A DNA stretch of 64,000 nucleotides from Planctomycetota bacterium (lineage in GTDB: Bacteria > Planctomycetota > JAJSAM01 > JAJVHW01), in the NCBI GenBank assembly GCA_965248445.1, contig CBDFJG010000004.1, positions 1,760,001-1,824,000 of the forward strand, read 5' to 3'. This document shows, piece after piece, positions 8,220-35,299 of the stretch. Numbering within the stretch: position 1 is the stretch's first letter; each line of letters starts with the position of its first letter. The notes beneath the pieces were generated by a model, which searched no databases, was not told the DNA's origin, and was given only the letters and a program-made list of their open reading frames with translations. A program made the translations under genes and the position numbers.

Positions 8220-9527
8220 ATGAGCGAGACACTCTTGACCGATGCCCTCCGTGCGGCCGTCGAGCGACGCGCTGCGGACGAGCCCGACTGGATCGCTGCG
8301 GCCCGCAGACGCGCCTTTGCTGCGTACGGCCAGGCATCTCTTCCGGACCGTGTGCAGCACGTCTGGCGCTACACGGACCCCAGGCGCCTGCTGCCCGGAG
8401 ACAGAGTTCCGGAGCGCCCCGAGGCGCAGTTCGGCGACTTGCCGGAGGACTGCAAGGACGGGACGTTCGAGTACCACGCAGGCGTCGCGCTCGCCCTCGA
8501 CGGGCGCGTTCTCCGCGTGGCGCAGGACCCTGAACTGCTCGACAGCGGGATCGCGTTCGGAGACGTGCGCACCCTCGCGGCCGAGTGTCCGGATCGCGTG
8601 CGGCCGCACCTGTTCCGACTGGTGGATCCCGCCGCCGATCTGTTCGAACAGCTCTCCTGCGCGCTGTTCGCAGGTGGCACGTTCCTCGACATCCCGGACG
8701 GCCTGGCGATCGATCGGCCGTTCCACATCGCCCACCGCGTGGGCGGCGACGGCATCGCCGCATCACGATCCGTGGTGACCCTGGGAGAGAATGCCGAGGC
8801 GACGGTCGTGTTCGATCTCGCATCCGGCGAAGACGGCGGGGAGACGCTGCTGCACGAGGGCATCGAGATCCACGTCGGACCGAACTCCCGGCTACGCGTC
8901 GTCTTCGTGCAGGAGCTCGACTCTCGCGCGATCCACGCGCCGGTGATCCGCTGCCGCGTCGATCGCGGCGCACAGCTCGAAACCGTCACCGTGTCCCTCG
9001 GTGGCAGCGTCGTGAAGAGCCGGCAGTCCGTCGAGGTCGCCGGCCGCGGCGCCAGCGTCCGTTCGCTCGGCATCGTCTTCGCGAACCGGCGCCAGCACAT
9101 CGATCACCACACGCTCATGGACCACATCGTCGGCCACGGGTCGAGTGACCTGGACTACCGCACCGTGGTGGCCGACCGCGCCCGCTCGGCCTATACGGGC
9201 AATCTGCGCATCGGTCTCGAGGGCGATCAGTCCAACGCGCATCAGCGCAACCACAACCTGCTCCTCAGCGACCATGCGCGCGCCGACACGATCCCTGAGC
9301 TCGAGATCCTGACTAACGACGTGCAGTGCTCGCACGCCGCAGCCGTCGGTCCGCTGGACGAGGAACTGCTGCACTTCTGTCAGTGTCGCGGGCTCGCGCG
9401 TCCGGACGCGAAGCGCCTCGTGGTGCTCGGGTTCCTCGAGCCAGTCATCTCGCGCGTCCCCGGCGACGCACTCGTCACCCGCGTCCGCGATGCGCTCGCG
9501 CGGCGCCTGGAGGGCGTCCTGCTGTGA
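8220..9527 (+). CDS. sufD: Fe-S cluster assembly protein SufD
   Basis: WRYTD, PELEILTNDVQCSHAAAVG; position after sufB. Confidence 0.92.
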   Translation: MSETLLTDALRAAVERRAADEPDWIAAARRRAFAAYGQASLPDRVQHVWRYTDPRRLLPGDRVPERPEAQFGDLPEDCKDGTFEYHAGVALALDGRVLRVAQDPELLDSGIAFGDVRTLAAECPDRVRPHLFRLVDPAADLFEQLSCALFAGGTFLDIPDGLAIDRPFHIAHRVGGDGIAASRSVVTLGENAEATVVFDLASGEDGGETLLHEGIEIHVGPNSRLRVVFVQELDSRAIHAPVIRCRVDRGAQLETVTVSLGGSVVKSRQSVEVAGRGASVRSLGIVFANRRQHIDHHTLMDHIVGHGSSDLDYRTVVADRARSAYTGNLRIGLEGDQSNAHQRNHNLLLSDHARADTIPELEILTNDVQCSHAAAVGPLDEELLHFCQCRGLARPDAKRLVVLGFLEPVISRVPGDALVTRVRDALARRLEGVLL

Positions 9528-9841
9528 GCCGCCATGTGCTCTGCACGCTGGAGGACCTGCCGCACGGCGCCGTCCGCGTGTTCGAGGTCGGCGGGTTCCG
9601 CGTGGCCGCCGCCCGCGCGGGCGACGCGGTGTTCGCCCTGGAAGACCGCTGCAGCCACGACGACGGCGAGCTGGGCGCGGGGACGCTCCACGAGGACGGC
9701 GAGATCGAATGCCCGCGGCACGGTGGGCGTTTCGACATCCGGAGCGGAAAAGCAACCCAGATGCCCGCGATCGCACCCATCGAGGTGTTCCCCACCGCGA
9801 TCGAAGACGGCGTGATCTACGTCGAGGTGCCCGAGTGGTGA
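9524..9841 (+). CDS. Rieske-type [2Fe-2S] ferredoxin
   Basis: CSH...CPRH Rieske motifs; GTGA overlap with sufD. Confidence 0.9.
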   Translation: MSRHVLCTLEDLPHGAVRVFEVGGFRVAAARAGDAVFALEDRCSHDDGELGAGTLHEDGEIECPRHGGRFDIRSGKATQMPAIAPIEVFPTAIEDGVIYVEVPEW

Positions 9842-16226: not shown

Positions 16227-18506
16227 ATGTCAGCACGCCCCGACGCCATCGACCCCGCCCGCTTCGAGGAGTTGTTCGCGCACCGCGAGTGGGTGCGGCG
16301 CCTGGCGCGCACGCTGGTCGGGGATCACGCCTCAGCCGACGACGTGGAGCAGGAGGTGTGGGTCCGGGCACTGCGCGCTCCGCCCCGGGCGCTGAGATCT
16401 GCGCGTGCATGGCTGGGCACGGTCGCACGCAACGCGGCCCACGACAGCCGGCGTTCCACGAGCCGGCGGGCGGCGCGCGAGGCAAGAACCCGCGTCCGGC
16501 AGACCAGTTCATCGGCCTACGACGTCGTGTCACGCGCCGAGACGCACCGCGACCTCGTCAACCGCGTGCTCGCGCTGCCACAGCCGTACCGTTCGGTGGT
16601 CCTCCTGCGGTTCTACGACGGCCTCCCGCCGCGGGAGATCGGAGCGCGCACCGACACGACTGGGGAGACCGCGCGAAAGCGCGTCCAGCGCGGAGTCGCC
16701 ATGTTGCGCGACGGCTTCAGTGACGATCTCCACGTCCTGCTGCTCCCGCTCCTGGCGGGAGCGTCCAAACTCGCGAAAGGGGCCGCTGTGGGTACCAAGT
16801 CGAAGTCCAGCATCGCGCTCGTGCTTCTTCTCCTGCTCGGTCTGACCGTCGGGGCAGGCTGGATGGTGATGTCCAGCGCCGGAGGTGCAGGCAACGACCC
16901 GGACGTCGCCGCACTCGGAGCCAGTGGCGACGCGGTGGGAACCACGCGCAAGGGCGAGTACGGAGACGACGCAGCGGTCGACGACAGCGCCGAGGACCGA
17001 CCGGGAGCAGCCGGCGGCGGCAGCGCATCCACCGAAAACGCCCGCGCGCGCGAGCGGGTGGAAATCGGCGAGACCGCCGCCGCAGAAGCTGCGGACGAGG
17101 ACGCCGAGGATGCCGCCAAGCGGCGTGTCCGCGGCGCCCTCGTGTTCGCGGACGGGAGCGGACCCGTCGCCGGCGCCGTCGTCTATCTGCGCCCGTCGAC
17201 CGGATCGATGGTCGCCGTGCGCCGCGTCGTATCCGACGCAACCGGTGGGTTCTCGTTCGATGACCTGGACGAGGACGCCTACCGCCTTCAGGTGGGGGAT
17301 CGGATGGCCGTGGACAACCCGCCTGTCGAGTTCGTCCCCCACGACGTGTCGCGCGTGCGCGTGGGCACCGAGCCACTCGCCATCGACATCGAGCGGGGCC
17401 TGACCATCGAGGGCGTGCTGCTCGACTCGGCCGGTCAACTGATCACCGAGAAGGTCGTGGTGCGTCTGGACGGTCCCAAGGGGAGCGGGCTCACGCAGGG
17501 GGAGTCACTGCGCATGCTGCGCATCGTGAACGGGCATCTGCGCGTGCCGGGTCTGCGGCCGGGCAACTACGACATGAGCTTCCGTGCGGAGTACCCGGCA
17601 CTGGGAGAAGCGGCGCCGAGCGTGGGTTCCACCGTCATGGAGGACGTGGCAGCGGGCACGACCGACCTGACCGTCCGATTCGGTCCGGTTGGGAGGATCT
17701 CGGGCCGGCTGGTCGATCGCACGGGGAGCCCGATCGTGGCGAAGGGCGGCTGGCTCATGGCCACGCCCGCCGGGGGAGAGTCGGGATCGCTCGGCTCCGT
17801 CTGGATGACGTTCGCGGAGGATGGCACGTTCACCTCGCTGCCGCTCGACGGGAACCGCACGTACGACCTCATCGCCGGAAACTTCGAGGGGTTCGACGGG
17901 GGACGTACCAACACGGTCGTTCCCGGAGCCACCGACGTCCTCGTACGGCTGCGCCGCTCCGGCCGGATCACCGGACGCATCGTCCGCGCAGACGGCAAGA
18001 CCGTGCCCATCGGCCTGTACGTGCTCGCGCAGGCGACGGACGCTCCCTCCGGCCGGCCGGAGGGGAGTTTCTCGTTCGCGTACTCACAGGCCGACGGCTC
18101 GTTCGCGCTGGAGGGACTCGGCGAGTTCACGTTCCGGGTCGTGGCAGGCGGAGGTACGAGCGACCTCGCACTCGTCGAGGCATTGAACGGCATCCAGCCC
18201 GGCGCGACGGACGTCATCGTGCGCGTCCGCCCCGGCGAAACGGTGACCGGCCGGCTCGTGAACGCGGAGGGCGGCGCGGTGAGGACCTCACGGCTCAGCG
18301 CGTTGCGCGACGACCCGGTGCAGCCGACGCCCTCGGTGACGGTGGACTCCGCGGACGGTGACTTCGAGTTCCGCTCGCTGCGCCCCGGCCACTACCGGTT
18401 CTTCGCGCTGATCGGCGAGGAGAGCGTGCTGGTCGGCGACGCCGTTGCGCCGGCGACGGACGTCGTGCTCCGCCTGCCCGGCGGGAAGCGCGTCTCAGCG
18501 CGCTGA
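16227..18506 (+). CDS. ECF sigma-70 factor with transmembrane helix and long extracytoplasmic beta-repeat extension
   Basis: Sigma2 (ADDVEQEVW, AWLGTVARN), sigma4 (LPQPYRSVVLLRFYDGL), TM (IALVLLLLLGLTVGAGW), repeated 'GR(I/L)xGxxVxxxG' carboxypeptidase-regulatory-like units. Confidence 0.85.
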   Translation: MSARPDAIDPARFEELFAHREWVRRLARTLVGDHASADDVEQEVWVRALRAPPRALRSARAWLGTVARNAAHDSRRSTSRRAAREARTRVRQTSSSAYDVVSRAETHRDLVNRVLALPQPYRSVVLLRFYDGLPPREIGARTDTTGETARKRVQRGVAMLRDGFSDDLHVLLLPLLAGASKLAKGAAVGTKSKSSIALVLLLLLGLTVGAGWMVMSSAGGAGNDPDVAALGASGDAVGTTRKGEYGDDAAVDDSAEDRPGAAGGGSASTENARARERVEIGETAAAEAADEDAEDAAKRRVRGALVFADGSGPVAGAVVYLRPSTGSMVAVRRVVSDATGGFSFDDLDEDAYRLQVGDRMAVDNPPVEFVPHDVSRVRVGTEPLAIDIERGLTIEGVLLDSAGQLITEKVVVRLDGPKGSGLTQGESLRMLRIVNGHLRVPGLRPGNYDMSFRAEYPALGEAAPSVGSTVMEDVAAGTTDLTVRFGPVGRISGRLVDRTGSPIVAKGGWLMATPAGGESGSLGSVWMTFAEDGTFTSLPLDGNRTYDLIAGNFEGFDGGRTNTVVPGATDVLVRLRRSGRITGRIVRADGKTVPIGLYVLAQATDAPSGRPEGSFSFAYSQADGSFALEGLGEFTFRVVAGGGTSDLALVEALNGIQPGATDVIVRVRPGETVTGRLVNAEGGAVRTSRLSALRDDPVQPTPSVTVDSADGDFEFRSLRPGHYRFFALIGEESVLVGDAVAPATDVVLRLPGGKRVSAR

Positions 18507-18761: not shown

Positions 18762-20468
18762 CTACCCGCTCTCCGGCCGCGACTCGGGGGCGTCCAATCG
18801 CGCGATCTCGCGCGCAAGGTAACGCCGCCGCAGCTCACCCCGTTTGACCTTCCCGCTGGACGTCTTCGGAATCTCGCCCCGCCGCACGAAGGCAACGTCG
18901 GCGAGCGGCAGGCCCATGTCCCTCCCGATGCGGCGGCGCACGTCGGCGGTGATCCCGTCGAGGTCCGGCCCGGACTCCGGATCGACCTCGATGACGAGGA
19001 CCGCAGCCTCCGTTCCCGATGCGGCCGGCACCGCGAATGCGCCGGTGCGGCAGGTGCCGCCCCCACCGGACGCCTCCTCGGCATGGCGCTCGAGTTCGGT
19101 CGGCATCACGTTGTCGCCACCGACGATGATCAGGTCCTTGATGCGGCCGGTGAGGTACAGCTCGCCGTCGGCCACGAAGCCGAGATCACCCGTGTGCAGC
19201 CAGCCGTCCCGCACGCACTCGGCAGTTGCCTCCGCATCGTCGTGGTAGCCGGAGAACAGCCCATCACCCCGCGTGCAGACCTCGCCGACCGTCTCCTCGG
19301 GGAGCGCGGAACCGTCCGGTGCGGAGACGCGCACTTCCATCCCGAGCACGGGCGCTCCGCAACTCGCGACGTCGCCGGCCTCGGTCGAACCCTCCGGCGC
19401 CGGTCGCGAGCGCACGCCCTCGCGCCGCTTGTCCATGCTGACGGTGAGCGTCGTCTCGGCCATGCCATACGCCGCCACGAGCGCCGCGCGGTCGAATCCG
19501 AGTGGCGCGAAGCGCTCGCAGAACGCGGCCGAGGTCGCCGGACGGACCATCTCGGCGCCCGTCACGGTCGCAGCCCAATTCGACAGGTCCACGCCCTCGA
19601 GCCGCTTCGCTTCGGCCCGGTCCACCAGAGTCTGGTAGGCGAAGTTCGGCGCGCCGCTGAACACGTGATCCGCCGCCGAGATTGCATGGAGCCACGACTC
19701 GGGCCGGCCGAGGAACGCGCGCTGCGAGTGGAACCAGACGGAGTGCCCCTGCACGAGCGAGAACAAGAGACACCCGACGAGACCCATGTCGTGGTGCAGC
19801 GGCAGCCACGAAACGAGCGCCCCGCCCGCGTCGCGCGTCTGCGGACGCGGCGTGGCGTCCGCAATCGCCTCGGTAGTGGCGACCGCCGCGCGGTGCGAGA
19901 TCGAGACCGCGCGCGGCAGTCCCGTCGAACCGCTCGTGAATTGCAGGAACGCGACGTCCTCACCGGTGCGGCTGACTACGCCGCCTCGCGACACGTCGCG
20001 AGCGGCGAACGCCTCGGAGGTCGTCATGCGCGCTGCCAGCTCGGCCTCGCCGAGCTCCGCCGCGCGCTTCACGGTGAGTTCGCTCGCGACGACGAGCGGC
20101 GGATCCAAGCGCGTGGTGAGCTCTGCGAGGACGCGGAACTGCTGGCCCGACGCCCCCAGCGCACTAGGCGGCGCAACGGCCACCGGATACGCGCCGGCGA
20201 GCAGCGCACCGAACCAGACGTCCAGGAACTCCCACGAGGCCGGCAGGCACACGAACACCGGCCGCCGTTCGTGGTTGACCAGCGAGGCGACGCGCCCGGC
20301 TGCGCGCTTCCAGGTGCGCTGCAGCGCGGCCCACGAGCGCAGCTCGCCTGGGCGGCCCCGGCGGTCGGTGAACAGGATCCCGCGGCCGGGTGACCGCTCC
20401 GCGGTGCGCGCGAGCGCGCCGAGGAGATCGTCGGGGAGGTCGCCCGCGAGGGTCACGACCGTCGACAC
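18762..20468 (-). CDS. Fatty acyl-AMP ligase (FAAL-type adenylation enzyme)
   Basis: FLQFTSGSTG, SWLPLHHDMGLVG, YGMAE, WLHTGDLG, IPKTSSGK; start taken as GTG 20468 just after the upstream gene's stop. Confidence 0.88.
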   Translation of the reverse strand: MSTVVTLAGDLPDDLLGALARTAERSPGRGILFTDRRGRPGELRSWAALQRTWKRAAGRVASLVNHERRPVFVCLPASWEFLDVWFGALLAGAYPVAVAPPSALGASGQQFRVLAELTTRLDPPLVVASELTVKRAAELGEAELAARMTTSEAFAARDVSRGGVVSRTGEDVAFLQFTSGSTGLPRAVSISHRAAVATTEAIADATPRPQTRDAGGALVSWLPLHHDMGLVGCLLFSLVQGHSVWFHSQRAFLGRPESWLHAISAADHVFSGAPNFAYQTLVDRAEAKRLEGVDLSNWAATVTGAEMVRPATSAAFCERFAPLGFDRAALVAAYGMAETTLTVSMDKRREGVRSRPAPEGSTEAGDVASCGAPVLGMEVRVSAPDGSALPEETVGEVCTRGDGLFSGYHDDAEATAECVRDGWLHTGDLGFVADGELYLTGRIKDLIIVGGDNVMPTELERHAEEASGGGGTCRTGAFAVPAASGTEAAVLVIEVDPESGPDLDGITADVRRRIGRDMGLPLADVAFVRRGEIPKTSSGKVKRGELRRRYLAREIARLDAPESRPESG

Positions 20469-20478
20469 TCCACGGGGA

Positions 20479-21306
20479 TCAGCCCTCTTCCGAGACCGCC
20501 TCGGTGAGCGAGGCGTTCTGCCACTCACGCTGGCCCGTCTCGATCGACTTCATGAGCCGCGTACGGCACTCCTCGCGCAGCTGCTCGAAGAAGTCGTCGG
20601 GGGACTCCATCCCGAATTCGTCCGTGTCGGCTTCGAGCGCCTGCAGGATCGGCGGCACGCGCTCGAGCACGTACTCGAGCCGCTCGAGAAGCGTCTCGGA
20701 CATCTCGCCCGCGCTCGCCTCGTTCTCCGCGAACGCCCCCTGAAATCGGTCGGCGAGGAAGATGTGATTGAAGCCGAGGTGTCGGGACTCGTCCTCCAGC
20801 ACGCGTGTGCACGCGTCGTCGAGCACGGGGTCCACGTGTGCGTCGCGGATCTGCTCGAGCGAGCGCTTCGCGAGTACCTCGGAGATGAGCGAGCCGGTGA
20901 GCCACTGCATCGGGTCATCGCACATGATCGCGCTCTGGAACAGGTAGCCCGGGGGGAACCGCCGGATCGACAGGGGCTCGCTGTCGATCCGGCCGTAGTA
21001 CCGCGTGAACAGCTCAACGTGCTTCGACTCGTCCATCAGCATCGAAGTGAGGAAGAACTGCCCCTCGACCTCCGAGGTGCGCCCCAGGATCTGGATGATC
21101 TGCGTGATGGAGTAGAGCGCGGCCTGCTCGCCCATCAAGATGGGGCTGAGCGCGCGTGCGAGCGAGCGGCGGTGGCTGTCCTTCTCGAGCGCGCCCGGCG
21201 CGAACCAGTCGATGTCCGCCGGCGACCAAGTGATCTTGATCGCCTTGTGCCAGAGCTTCATCTGCTTGCGCTGCTTCAGATCGGGAAGCGTCTTGTAGAT
21301 CCGCAT
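20479..21306 (-). CDS. Ferritin-like diiron-carboxylate enzyme
   Basis: E...DESKH...E...DESRH ligand pattern; GGAGG RBS before ATG 21306. Confidence 0.8.
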   Translation of the reverse strand: MRIYKTLPDLKQRKQMKLWHKAIKITWSPADIDWFAPGALEKDSHRRSLARALSPILMGEQAALYSITQIIQILGRTSEVEGQFFLTSMLMDESKHVELFTRYYGRIDSEPLSIRRFPPGYLFQSAIMCDDPMQWLTGSLISEVLAKRSLEQIRDAHVDPVLDDACTRVLEDESRHLGFNHIFLADRFQGAFAENEASAGEMSETLLERLEYVLERVPPILQALEADTDEFGMESPDDFFEQLREECRTRLMKSIETGQREWQNASLTEAVSEEG

Positions 21307-21395
21307 CGCGGCCCTCCGCCGCCCGGTATACCGCCCCGCCCGGGAGGACTTCCCGTTCTGGCGGGGCGAGGCGCCGGGGGCGCTACCCTTCTCCG

Positions 21396-23642
21396 ATGCG
21401 ACTCCTCTCCCTCGCCGCTCTCGCCGTGGTCGGTGCCGTCGCACCTGCCGCCCTCGCCCAGGACACGGCTCCGCGGCACAGGCCGCTGGTCGAACTGTTC
21501 ACCTCACAGGGTTGAAGCAGCTGCCCGAAAGCCGACGAGTTCGTCGGCGAGTTGACGACGCCCGAGTTCCTCGCCGGTGCCACCGTCATCACCTGGCACG
21601 TGGACTACTGGGACTACCTGGGCTACGAGGATCCCTACGGCAAGTCAGAGCACACGCGGCGACAGCAGCTGTACCGAAAGCACCGCGCACCGAAGCACTT
21701 CGGTACACCACAGATCGCGATCGCGAACGAGTTCCTGCCCTGGGAGAAGGGCGCGTACGCGCGGGTTCCGGATCTCATCGCGGAGGCGAAGAAGAACGCG
21801 CCGTCGTTCAACCTCGTCGCGTCCATCGAGCGCGATGAACGAGGCGTCGTCGTCCACGCCGAACTGGATGCGATCGGCGAGCAGAGCACCGACGGTCTGG
21901 TGCTCCGCCCGGTACTGCTGCTGCGCGAGGCGAGGACCGACGTCACTGCAGGTGAGAACGAAGGAAAGACGCTGACGGAGTGGTTCGTGGCGCTGACAAC
22001 GGCCGTCCTGCCGGCGTCGCAAGCCGTCGACGGCGTGGCGAAGTTCCACCTGAAGGACACGACCGCGCACAGTGCGGAGCAGCTCGCAGTCGCCGTGCTT
22101 GTCGAGCGCGTCGACGACCTGCGCACGCTCGACTCGTGGTTCCTCGGCGTTGCTCCGCCGGCCGAGAGGCCCGACCGCGAGCACGACGACCAGCACATGG
22201 AGTCGGCGCTCGCCGCGGCCGGTGACAACGCCGTACAGCTCGAGCGGTTCCTCAAGCACTACGAAGACGACGAACAGAAGAGCACTGCGGCCCGCTGGCT
22301 CGTGGAGAACATGGAGGGCAAGGGCTACGTCGTCACCGAACTGCGCAACGCCAAGGGCGAGACGGTGCCGTTCGACACGCTCTCGTACAAGACGTACGCC
22401 GAATCGCTCTCGGCGATCGAGGCGCTCGAGAAGGAGCACGGCGAACTCGAGTTCGCGCGGGACCGGATCGTCGAGGACCTGGCTACAGTCACCGCGGAGT
22501 TCCTGATTCGCCGTACGGACCAGGCAATCGCAGCGTGGCGTGCGCAGCCGGCATCCCGGCGCGTCGACTTCGACACGTTCCTGAACCACGTCCTCCCCTA
22601 CCGCGGCAGCCAGGAGCCTCTGGACGACTGGATCGGCCCGCTGCGTGAGCGGACGGGTGAGATCGCCGCGGGACTGCCCCAGAACGCCGGGATCGACGAG
22701 CTCTACCGGGCGCTCAACAAGGACGTGAACTCCCGGGTGAAGTTCAACGAGCGCTTCTACCTGCACCCGACGGACCAGAGCTTCGGTGAGATGCTCGAGA
22801 GCGGCCAGGGCCGCTGCGAGGACATCACGAACATGATCACATACGCCGCGCGCAGCGCGGCGCTGGCGACGGCCGCGGACTACACGCCGTGGTGGGCGCA
22901 CCGCGACAACAACCACGCCTGGAACGTGCTCCTCGACCAGAACGGTGTGGGCGCCGACAAGGCGCAGTCCCATGCGGCGAAGATCTACCGCAAGACGTTC
23001 GCCGTCCAGCGGAACGCGCTCGCGTTCCAGCTACCTGAGGGCCGCGAGGCAGCAAACCGGTTCATGGCGAGCACGACGTACGTGGACGTCACCGACCAGT
23101 ACCGCGAGACCAAAGATGTCGGCACGTGGATCATCTCACCCGATCATGCCCTCGAGCGCTTCGCGTACCTCTGCGTGTTCAACGGCGGCGAGTGGAAGGC
23201 GATCCAGTGGGCGCCGGTCCACTACGCGTACGCGAAGTTCGCAAAGATGGGCCGCGACATCCTGTACCTGCCGGCGCTGCACGACGGCGACCGGCTGATC
23301 CCAGCGAACGCACCGCTCACCGTCGACGACGAAGGCGAGCGTTGGCCGCTGGCGGGCAAGGACCCCGGCACGAGCTTGCTCGCTACCTCCACCAAGCCGA
23401 GGCAGAAGAGCGCGGAGACCGGCGAGGTCACGCCCATCTCGCACCTGACCGCGGGCACCGAGTACACGCTGAAGCGGTGGGCTGACGGGGACTGGGTCGA
23501 CGTCGCGACGGTCATCGCCGGCAAGGAACCGCTGCGTTTCGACGACCTGCCGGAGGACGCGCTCTACTGGCTGGTGGCCAAGGACTCACGCAGGCTCGAG
23601 CGCCCGTTCACGATCCAGGAAGGCCGCCAGCGCTTCTGGTAG
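21396..23642 (+). CDS. Probable selenoprotein: signal peptide + DUF1223 thioredoxin-like domain (UxxC) + transglutaminase-like domain
   Basis: MRLLSLAALAVVGAVAPAALAQD...LVELFTSQG[TGA 21513-21515]SSCPKAD is in frame with the 21552 ORF; HVDYWDYLGYEDPY and GENEG motifs; later GRCED...NHAWN. Confidence 0.8.
21531..21548 (+). promoter_or_regulatory. SECIS-like hairpin
   Basis: GCCGACG-AGTT-CGTCGGC, with the loop 22 nt after the in-frame UGA. Confidence 0.65.
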
Positions 23643-23705
23643 CTGACGCGGCGATGCGTGTGCGGGCGAGGGCGAGGGTGGAACCCCGCCCGGAATCGGC
23701 AGGGA

Positions 23706-33629: not shown

Positions 33630-35299
33630 CCCGAATCGTTCACCAGCCGGGAATCTGAGCGGGCCGTCGTCTGTCTAAGTGCTCGTACTCGCTAGTACTT
33701 GCACCGACAGGAGCGCCGGCCCGATGACGACAGACTGTAGCCCGCAGGGGACCCTCTTCGCGGGCATCTGTGGACGCACCGCGGTGACGCGCTTCGACGC
33801 CGGTACCGTGACGAGCGACGGGGGCGTGCTGCTGCTCGAGCGGGTCGATCGTCGCATCGATCTGCTCTCGCGGTTTGCGCGCTGCTTCGGGGACCACCGG
33901 GACCCGCGTCGGGTCGAGCACACGGTCGGCCAGATGCTGCGTCAGCGGGTCTTCGGGCTGTGCGCGGGCTACGAGGATCTGGTGGACCACGACCATGTCG
34001 GCAAGGACCCGCTGTTTGCCGCGGCGTGCGGCAAGCGCGAGGGTGCTCTGGCCACGCACCCGACGCTCTCGCGGCTCGAGACCACGCAGCTCGGCGCCAC
34101 GGCACAGACGCGCTACGCCAAGATCGAGATGGACCAGGAGCGCGTGGACAGCGTGCTCAGCGACGTCTTCTGCGAGGCCATGGGGCCGGAGGATCCGGGC
34201 CTGCTCGTGCTGGACCTGGACCACTCCGACGTGCGGCTGCACGGCCGGCAGGAGGGCCGCTTCTTCCACGGCTACTACGGGCACTACTGCTACCTGCCGC
34301 TGTACGTCTTCTGCGGCGAGCACCTCTTGCTCGCTCGGCTCCAGACCGCTGACAGAGATCCCGCGCGCGGAGTCGTGGACGAGCTCCGTGCGCTGGTCTT
34401 ACGTCTGCGGCGCCGCTGGCCCCGGGCCAAGGTGCTCGTGCGCGCAGACTCGGGCTTTTGCCGCGAGGAGCTGATGGCCTGGTGCGAGGCCGCCGGCCAC
34501 TTCTACCTGCTGGGCATGGCGCGCAATGAGCGCCTTGAGCGACACGTCGAAGACGCGCTCGATGAGGCCGCAGCCCGTGCCGTGCAGACCGGCCGAGCAG
34601 CCCGGGTCTTTCGCGACTTTGCCTGGACCACGCTGGGGAGCTGGAGCCAGAGGCGTCGCGTGGTCGCCAAGGCCGAGCACCTGCCGGGCGGCAAGCGCAA
34701 TCCCCGCTTCGTGGTGACCAATCTGCCGCCTCGTAGCTGGAGCAGCAAGCGTCTCTACGAGCAGCTCTACTGCGCCCGGGGCGAGGCGGAGAATCGCATC
34801 AAGGAGCAGCAGCTCGAGCTCTTCGGCACCCGTCTGTCGGTGCACACGATGCAGGGCAACGCCGTGCGGATGGCCATGTCGGCCATGGCCTACGTCCTGA
34901 CCTGTGCGCTGCGACGCATCGGTCTCGCCGGCACCGAGATGGCGCGTGCGCAAGCCGGCACGATCCGCCTGCGGCTGCTCAAGATCGGCGCGCTCGTGCG
35001 GATCACGACGCGCCGGATCTGGGTCTCGATGTCCTCGTCGTGGCCCTGGCAGCACGTCTTCGAGCGCTGCGCGCAACGACTGCTGGCATCCCCGAAGCCG
35101 ACCTGACGTCCCGCCGCGCCGTCCGCCACACCACCGCCCGGCCTACGGTCTGCCCACACCGCAGAATCCGCGCCGTTTCGGCCGCTCACTCGCGTTGCCC
35201 TTGTGGCAACGACGACAGCATCCGCCCTCGCCTGGCCAAGATCTGACCCTGTGGACTCCGAAAGCACCGTCATCGCGACGTCTCGTGAACAGATGCGGG
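33630..35299 (+). mobile_element. IS1380-family element copy 2 (full length)
   Basis: IRL CCCGAATCGTTCAC at 33630; imperfect IRR GTGAACAGATGCGGG at 35285-35299; no flanking direct repeat seen. Confidence 0.85.
33724..35106 (+). CDS. IS1380-family DDE transposase (second copy)
   Basis: Protein identical to copy 1 except ERCAQ versus ETCAR near the C-terminus. Confidence 0.95.
   Translation: MTTDCSPQGTLFAGICGRTAVTRFDAGTVTSDGGVLLLERVDRRIDLLSRFARCFGDHRDPRRVEHTVGQMLRQRVFGLCAGYEDLVDHDHVGKDPLFAAACGKREGALATHPTLSRLETTQLGATAQTRYAKIEMDQERVDSVLSDVFCEAMGPEDPGLLVLDLDHSDVRLHGRQEGRFFHGYYGHYCYLPLYVFCGEHLLLARLQTADRDPARGVVDELRALVLRLRRRWPRAKVLVRADSGFCREELMAWCEAAGHFYLLGMARNERLERHVEDALDEAAARAVQTGRAARVFRDFAWTTLGSWSQRRRVVAKAEHLPGGKRNPRFVVTNLPPRSWSSKRLYEQLYCARGEAENRIKEQQLELFGTRLSVHTMQGNAVRMAMSAMAYVLTCALRRIGLAGTEMARAQAGTIRLRLLKIGALVRITTRRIWVSMSSSWPWQHVFERCAQRLLASPKPT

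Follow-up and report, generated by a model that had tools for sequence, protein, structure and literature searches.

Is a stop codon at the predicted active site of a bacterial gene the mark of a dead gene, or is it read as selenocysteine (Sec), and if so, what would the selenium-bearing domain contribute to the enzyme to which it is joined? The question is raised by a 748-codon frame within a 64,000-nucleotide stretch of a Planctomycetota genome (contig CBDFJG010000004.1; hereafter the window, whose own positions are used throughout). An initial annotation had proposed that the gene encodes an exported selenoprotein in which a DUF1223 domain is fused to a transglutaminase-like domain, and that this may be a redox-gated cross-linking or proteolytic enzyme.

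Reading frame and domain layout

Translation from ATG 21396 confirms that TGA 21513–21515 is the sole internal stop of a frame of 748 codons that closes at TAG 23640–23642. The standard ORF call begins downstream of the UGA, at TTG 21552, and both of the fusions considered below are stored in the public protein collection as proteins of 696 (the window's) and 701 amino acids whose starts lie 3′ of the UGA. The full frame has the following features.

21396..23642, + strand: whole gene, 748 aa with the TGA read as Sec; a full-length TGA orthologue is found in genome G005
21396..21458, + strand: probable Sec-pathway signal peptide, aa 1–21, with an A-L-A cleavage motif, assigned by eye from the sequence
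21486..22103, + strand: DUF1223 domain, a thioredoxin-like part (UxxC, TP motif) and then a second subdomain of lower conservation
21513..21515, + strand: in-frame TGA, read as selenocysteine 40, within VELFTSQG-U-SSCP
21522..21524, + strand: Cys43, second residue of UxxC, present in all 50 aligned DUF1223 domains
21531..21548, + strand: putative bacterial SECIS hairpin, GCCGACG-AGTT-CGTCGGC, a 7-bp stem with its AGTT loop 22 nt past the UGA
22152..22190, + strand: unconserved linker, ~aa 253–265, standing where stand-alone relatives have a signal peptide
22182..23639, + strand: transglutaminase-like module, aa 263–748, with a helical N-part, a catalytic core and two beta-sandwich domains
22815..22817, + strand: Cys474, the putative nucleophile of catalysis (GRCED), conserved in all 69 sequences aligned
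22914..22916, + strand: His507, predicted catalytic base (NNHAW), nearly invariant, the motif occurring in 117 of 118 listed stand-alone homologues
23106..23633, + strand: two C-terminal beta-sandwich domains (Ig-like; CnaB/pilin-like), from structure matches

The Pfam match to DUF1223 (PF06764; aa 31–236, E 8.5e-37, 127.6 bits against a cut-off of 30.7, model positions 1–201 of 202) spans the TGA and places it, as had been proposed, on the first Cys of the CxxC motif. Together with a match to Transglut_core (PF01841; aa 435–512, E 2.8e-5, 24.8 bits against a cut-off of 23) and the putative leader, this upholds the description of an exported two-domain protein: the window encodes one putatively exported chain carrying U40-x-x-C43 and a Cys/His enzyme core. 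Leaders similar to the window's open the stand-alone relatives of either half. With both its start codon and its leader encoded 5′ of the UGA, the exported hydrolase would be made only upon Sec insertion. A promoter scan at the gene gave no match, and terminator matches there were at chance level only.

The letters at 21513–21515, which had been singled out for checking, are TGA in the contigs of four of four runs, and no letter differs among these contigs across 21300–23700; they are contigs rather than raw reads, from one sample that is possibly the source, so that the agreement rules out a slip of the present assembly and is not independent biology.

Evidence for selenocysteine decoding

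All four genes of the Sec pathway for which a search had been suggested are present in the window genome: selA, selB, selC (tRNA-Sec), and a selD that bears its own TGA. The perfect hairpin described 3′ of the UGA is likewise present, with G at loop position 2 and −14 kcal/mol for a 32-nt piece. It agrees on every constraint with the bacterial SECIS consensus in the available part of PMC13188914 (a 3–9-nt loop, a 4–16-bp stem, G at loop position 1–2, 16–37 nt from the UGA, and a minimum free energy of at most −7.5 kcal/mol).

By itself, the hairpin is weak evidence in a genome of 69% GC. Shuffle tests give z near 0 for pieces of 58–98 nt, the 32-nt piece that was chosen being the only one to reach −3.1; stems of at least 6 bp lie within the allowed zone at 22,211 of the 106,500 TGA triplets of the genome; and a perfect 7-bp stem survives in 11% of synonymous recodings. 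On these grounds we rejected the significance of the hairpin alone as decisive, and the case for Sec therefore rests on comparative data.

The closest comparison is with G005, a genome of a second genus in the same family, which encodes the same full-length fusion at 54% protein identity; its TGA occupies the corresponding codon, and its 18-nt hairpin is identical. Dozens of DUF1223 relatives also have TGA there. A metagenome scan for the TGA pattern returned at least 119 matches, and 63 among the matches listed are true DUF1223 genes with TGA at the window's codon; stand-alone TGA forms are thus common, in at least 63 metagenome loci and 15 further genomes. Of the 62 distinct TGA forms (59 from metagenomes, with the window, G005 and G040 making up the rest), 53 have a stem of at least 6 bp, versus 11 of 80 Cys forms, a control set that comes from other taxa, has somewhat lower GC (59 versus 64%), and was drawn from a related-locus search whose patterns cannot match TGA. 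In the window's exact register, the stem occurs in 32 TGA forms versus one Cys form. Across 25 hand-picked TGA forms, 89.7% of the cells of the stem are paired, and three of the seven pairs show two-sided changes, 25 in all; paired cells and two-sided changes are both above 500 of 500 shuffles and all slid controls, and measures that count pairs or pair types are not above shuffles in the same 25 forms.

A DUF1223 match occurs in 39 of 401 genomes of the phylum. We classed 17 of these as TGA and 19 as Cys, two of the Cys calls meaning only that no stop lies inside, and dropped three (one broken, two weak). selA or selB is present in 17/17 TGA genomes versus 11/19 Cys genomes, although kin genomes in these counts are not independent; eight of the 19 Cys genomes have neither selB nor a full-score selA.

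The rival reading is that the TGA is a nonsense mutation or sequencing error, in a gene that is dead or restarts at TTG 21552. It draws on the hairpin, which alone is not significant in this genome. Against it stand the TGA in four of four assemblies, the same-codon TGA in G005 and dozens of relatives, and the tie between the TGA, a covarying hairpin and the Sec machinery; we consider it extremely improbable. The initial annotation had taken close relatives that all carry Cys and share no conserved hairpin as the sign of such a mutation, and what is seen instead is a set of TGA forms that keep a covarying hairpin. With machinery, orthologue and hairpin in agreement, the selenoprotein claim holds up, and comparison of sequences indicates that the UGA is almost certainly decoded as selenocysteine.

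Several further loci can be recorded here. In genome G000, at least 12 further in-frame TGA codons lie in redox-type motifs, each followed by a SECIS-like hairpin: on C1 at 614313(−), 315009(+) and 172965(−); on C3 at 628783(−), 1771889(−), 1760481(−) and 1415700(−); and on C4 at 671858(+), 669339(+), 1312267(−), 366568(+) and 1756433(−). We take the motifs to be thioredoxin-, peroxiredoxin-, SelW- or AhpD-like. The organism appears to have a large selenoproteome, the scan being no census, as it missed the window's own gene and selD. In G033, a Sec-DUF1223 gene lies ~4 kb from selA on the same strand (G033:C38:4344–4934 and 8675–9760; L031, L267), and has a long, partly repeated C-terminal extension and a hairpin unlike the common type. 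Two Cys forms (L118 in G009, L252 in G327) are nested within the Sec clade in genomes that retain selA and selB, and are apparent Sec-to-Cys reversions. One metagenomic Sec-DUF1223 frame (L148:2480–3151) is open for 535 codons upstream of its TGA, possibly another fusion or a mere open GC-rich frame.

The DUF1223 domain as a selenoprotein family

The domain matches PDB 2AXO (Atu2684) at E 8e-18. Its two subdomains differ in conservation, with 61% identity to G005 in the thioredoxin part versus 30% in the second. With Atu2684 and with SrlA of Sinorhizobium meliloti (PMC9561847), it shares an exported thioredoxin-fold domain with VELFTSQG-C/U-xxCP, HVDYW, TP and GEN motifs; unlike these proteins, it has Sec for the first Cys, an in-frame SECIS and a fused 486-aa enzyme module, and comes from another phylum.

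The available part of PMC9561847 reports that deletion of srlA causes peroxide sensitivity, and that a C61S variant of SrlA still rescues salt sensitivity, from which it follows that the CxxC is dispensable for some DUF1223 function; we found no thiol-disulfide oxidoreductase activity of the family described in that part. Cys-type DUF1223 domains (P0270–P0312) are also found fused with MsrB (PF01641), DUF3179 (PF11376), DUF547 (PF04784) and an esterase (PF00756). A redox role is compatible with the MsrB and DUF3179 partners and with the peroxide-sensitive phenotype of the srlA deletion.

Known bacterial UxxC selenoproteins of the thioredoxin fold (Trx, Prx-like, DsbA-like, DsbG-like and DUF3179; PMC13188914 Table 1) share with the window protein Sec at the attacking position of CxxC, and their SECIS elements, in the available part of that review, have a G early in a small loop 16–37 nt downstream, as the window hairpin does. 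However, PF06764/DUF1223 is not among the 119 prokaryotic selenoprotein families in Table 1 of this 2026 review, none of which is described as a transglutaminase-like fusion. DUF1223 was not found as a selenoprotein in the available part of PMC12013277, nor, outside the subscription journals, in any publication joining the two terms. NCBIfam has no model for the protein. The main text and supplement of BSepDB gave no match to DUF1223, and none to the control term DUF3179 either. That Sec-DUF1223 constitutes an uncatalogued UxxC selenoprotein family is a well-supported proposal from these sequence comparisons.

The transglutaminase-like module

The GRCED and NHAWN motifs reported for the C-terminal half are present, supplying Cys474 and His507, and the Transglut_core profile is matched by 53 of 69 members of the module family. 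The confident AlphaFold model of the module (pLDDT 92.6, pTM 0.89) matches animal transglutaminases best, with modest scores (Foldseek E 4e-5 at 8–13% identity; Z up to 7.0); the transglutaminase matches are limited to the core and to 8–16% identity overall, and show no more than a likeness of fold. Lower matches include bacterial putative proteases and mouse PNGase (Z 5–6). The beta-sandwich matches have middling scores (Z 5–6.5 over model residues 309–386 and 393–484). A PDB sequence search with the module profile found nothing significant. The CxxC zinc motifs that flank the core in cytosolic PNGase/NGLY1 are absent; the module has two Cys only, 474 and 593.

The family consists of ~510-aa exported proteins, and the source names given are mostly Planctomycetota. 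Of 120 listed homologues, 118 are stand-alone, nearly all with a leader of their own, and stand-alone ~510-aa forms are 55–60% identical to the window module. With these uncharacterized ~510-aa proteins and with ~650-aa relatives bearing F5/8 type C domains, all in the transglutaminase-like superfamily (PF01841), the window protein shares GRCED and NNHAW; it differs in that its module is preceded by Sec-DUF1223 and in that its close subfamily is ~11 residues shorter after the His. The stretch from His507 to KVYR measures 22 residues in 147 close sequences versus 31–45 in 58 more distant ones, and it is here (window 22914–22990; P0004–P0180) that distant relatives mostly keep an FMGxE-like element with a conserved acid. 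Since the close subfamily does without this acid, a dyad or a relocated third residue may be used, candidates being Asp504 (141/147) and Asp514 (133/147). The module C-terminus (window 23625–23639) is nearly always an aromatic pair, e.g., RQRFW or RQRWW.

Twenty longer homologues, chosen from the 150 best representatives, include nine with F5/8 type C domains, three with ricin-type lectin domains, one with LamG and one with alpha-L-fucosidase; these lectin and glycosidase fusions belong to distant relatives and not to the window's subfamily. For the wider family they point to glycoconjugate substrates, and they alone hint at N-glycanase activity. Two proteins (P0128, P0148) have other kinds of domain ahead of the module: one, of 1104 aa, carries alpha-L-fucosidase and F5/8 type C, the other, of 1687 aa, a Ser/Thr kinase and WD40 repeats. 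Most bacterial members of the transglutaminase fold are thought to be hydrolases. Because distant relatives carry glycan-binding and glycosidase domains, we infer that hydrolysis is likelier than the cross-linking activity first suggested, and the core is probably a Cys/His amide hydrolase.

Origin and distribution of the fusion

The architecture, which the initial annotation did not recognize, is indeed rare: the fusion is found in two genomes only (window and G005) among 401 of the phylum, and makes up two of the 120 listed homologues. By its sequence, it is a new but rare combination. In trees, the C-halves of the two fusions group as weakly supported sisters (77) inside a set of stand-alone forms, each on a branch of 0.45 substitutions per site; their N-halves belong to a small Sec clade (support 89) that also contains three stand-alone forms. 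This makes one ancient fusion event likely. At 0.81 versus 0.31, the DUF1223 branch of the window is long, which may reflect relaxed constraint. Among long regions, the two fusions agree best in the thioredoxin part, at 61%, and in the catalytic core, at 66%; the linker differs in both length and sequence.

Among the 401 genomes, 25 encode the C-module and 39 encode DUF1223, and the overlap is the two fusions only, with 2.4 expected by chance (many of the genomes are 80–95% complete); 23 of the 25 C-module genomes have no DUF1223 match at all. No other locus holding both was present among 296 fetched loci. A Rosetta-stone partnership of the stand-alone halves was considered and rejected, as the overlap among these genomes is confined to the fusions themselves. 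Further fusions were absent from 33 metagenome Sec-DUF1223 ORFs with a closed end (186–246 aa past the UGA; in the remaining 30 of the 63 the frame reaches the edge of the locus), from 44 long DUF1223 proteins, the window's excepted (a search that misses forms annotated from after the UGA, such as that of G005), and from the 150 best C-module representatives.

There is no conserved neighborhood: in six regions, only the gene itself is common among filtered ORFs. Its divergent neighbors in the window, across an 89-nt gap, are a ferritin-like AurF/R2-type oxygenase (20479–21306, −) and then a fatty acyl-AMP ligase-like protein (18762–20528, −), which are not shared with G005. Farther out lie an ECF sigma factor of 759 aa whose long C-terminal extension holds carboxypeptidase-regulatory-like domains (16227–18506, +), a 475-aa DDE transposase (PF13701; 29414–30841, +) and, 4.3 kb on, an ORF of the same length and frame pattern (33679–35106, +), by these features probably a second transposase copy.

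A proposed mechanism and its alternatives

The sequence data strongly support a scheme in which the in-frame SECIS hairpin would guide SelB and tRNA-Sec in translating through the UGA, and the resulting protein would be exported. Trees and gene anatomy suggest that the fusion arose once, in one family of (probably) Planctomycetota, from a stand-alone Sec-DUF1223 and an exported transglutaminase-fold enzyme whose signal peptide was replaced. The C-module would act as a Cys/His amide hydrolase, either a peptidase or peptide:N-glycanase-like, on a protein or glycoprotein outside the cytoplasm. To this the U40-x-x-C43 domain would be an accessory tethered reductant, opening substrate disulfides and/or rescuing oxidized Cys474, a helper and not an obligatory switch; it may be recharged by a DsbD-type membrane protein, a gene for which is present in the window genome. 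Taken whole, we regard this account of a reductant tethered to an exported hydrolase as about evenly poised between right and wrong.

Each proposed role has an analogue. DsbG and DsbC protect single cysteines in the periplasm (PMC4624244, available part), and the Sec domain could rescue an oxidized catalytic Cys in a similar way. Nematode PNG-1 joins a thioredoxin to a transglutaminase-fold N-glycanase, and the opening of substrate disulfides could be PNG-1-like. According to the available part of PMC9102325, the Caenorhabditis elegans protein shares with ours an N-terminal thioredoxin-fold oxidoreductase, a transglutaminase-like Cys/His core and a C-terminal beta-sandwich; it differs in being cytosolic, eukaryotic and Cys-based, with CxxC zinc sites and a PAW domain. 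No PNGase in the PDB matches the window protein in sequence, and the fold match is weak (Z 5.2), an analogy and not orthology. A stronger version, in which the protein would be an exported two-step enzyme, a bacterial selenium-based counterpart of PNG-1 whose Sec-thioredoxin reduces glycoprotein disulfides so that an amidase of a new transglutaminase-fold family can cut or deglycosylate the substrate, strikes us as rather unlikely; in that version the supply of selenium would control synthesis, since the UGA precedes the entire hydrolase.

The selenoprotein could also be real and the fusion incidental, two independent exported enzymes with unrelated substrates sharing one signal peptide. The halves are promiscuous (DUF1223 with esterase, DUF547, MsrB and DUF3179; the C-module with fucosidase and kinase/WD40), they co-occur only in the two fusions, just 2/120 listed homologues are fused, and the linker is variable, all of which suits this reading. 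It fits less well with a fusion that two genera have retained at 54% identity, neither active site being lost, though persistence is no proof of coupling, and that is the sole DUF1223 copy in each genome; on balance it has an appreciable, if minority, chance of being correct. A cross-linking transglutaminase switched by the Sec domain is quite unlikely. Animal transglutaminases are its top fold matches, and Cys and His are conserved, but those matches stop at the core, relatives bear glycosidase and lectin domains, and bacterial members of the fold are mostly thought to be hydrolases. The gating first envisaged also finds little room where 118/120 listed homologues stand alone, 23/25 genomes have the module without DUF1223, and the linker is not conserved.

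Implications

The reach of the fusion is limited: it occurs in two genomes, and the C-module stands elsewhere without a Sec domain. The catalogue of bacterial selenoproteins would gain a widespread family, Sec-DUF1223, and gene calls that now lack the signal peptide and the active site would be corrected. The fusion would make two families of unknown function assayable together in one soluble protein, and it would place a non-redox exported enzyme under selenium-dependent translation.
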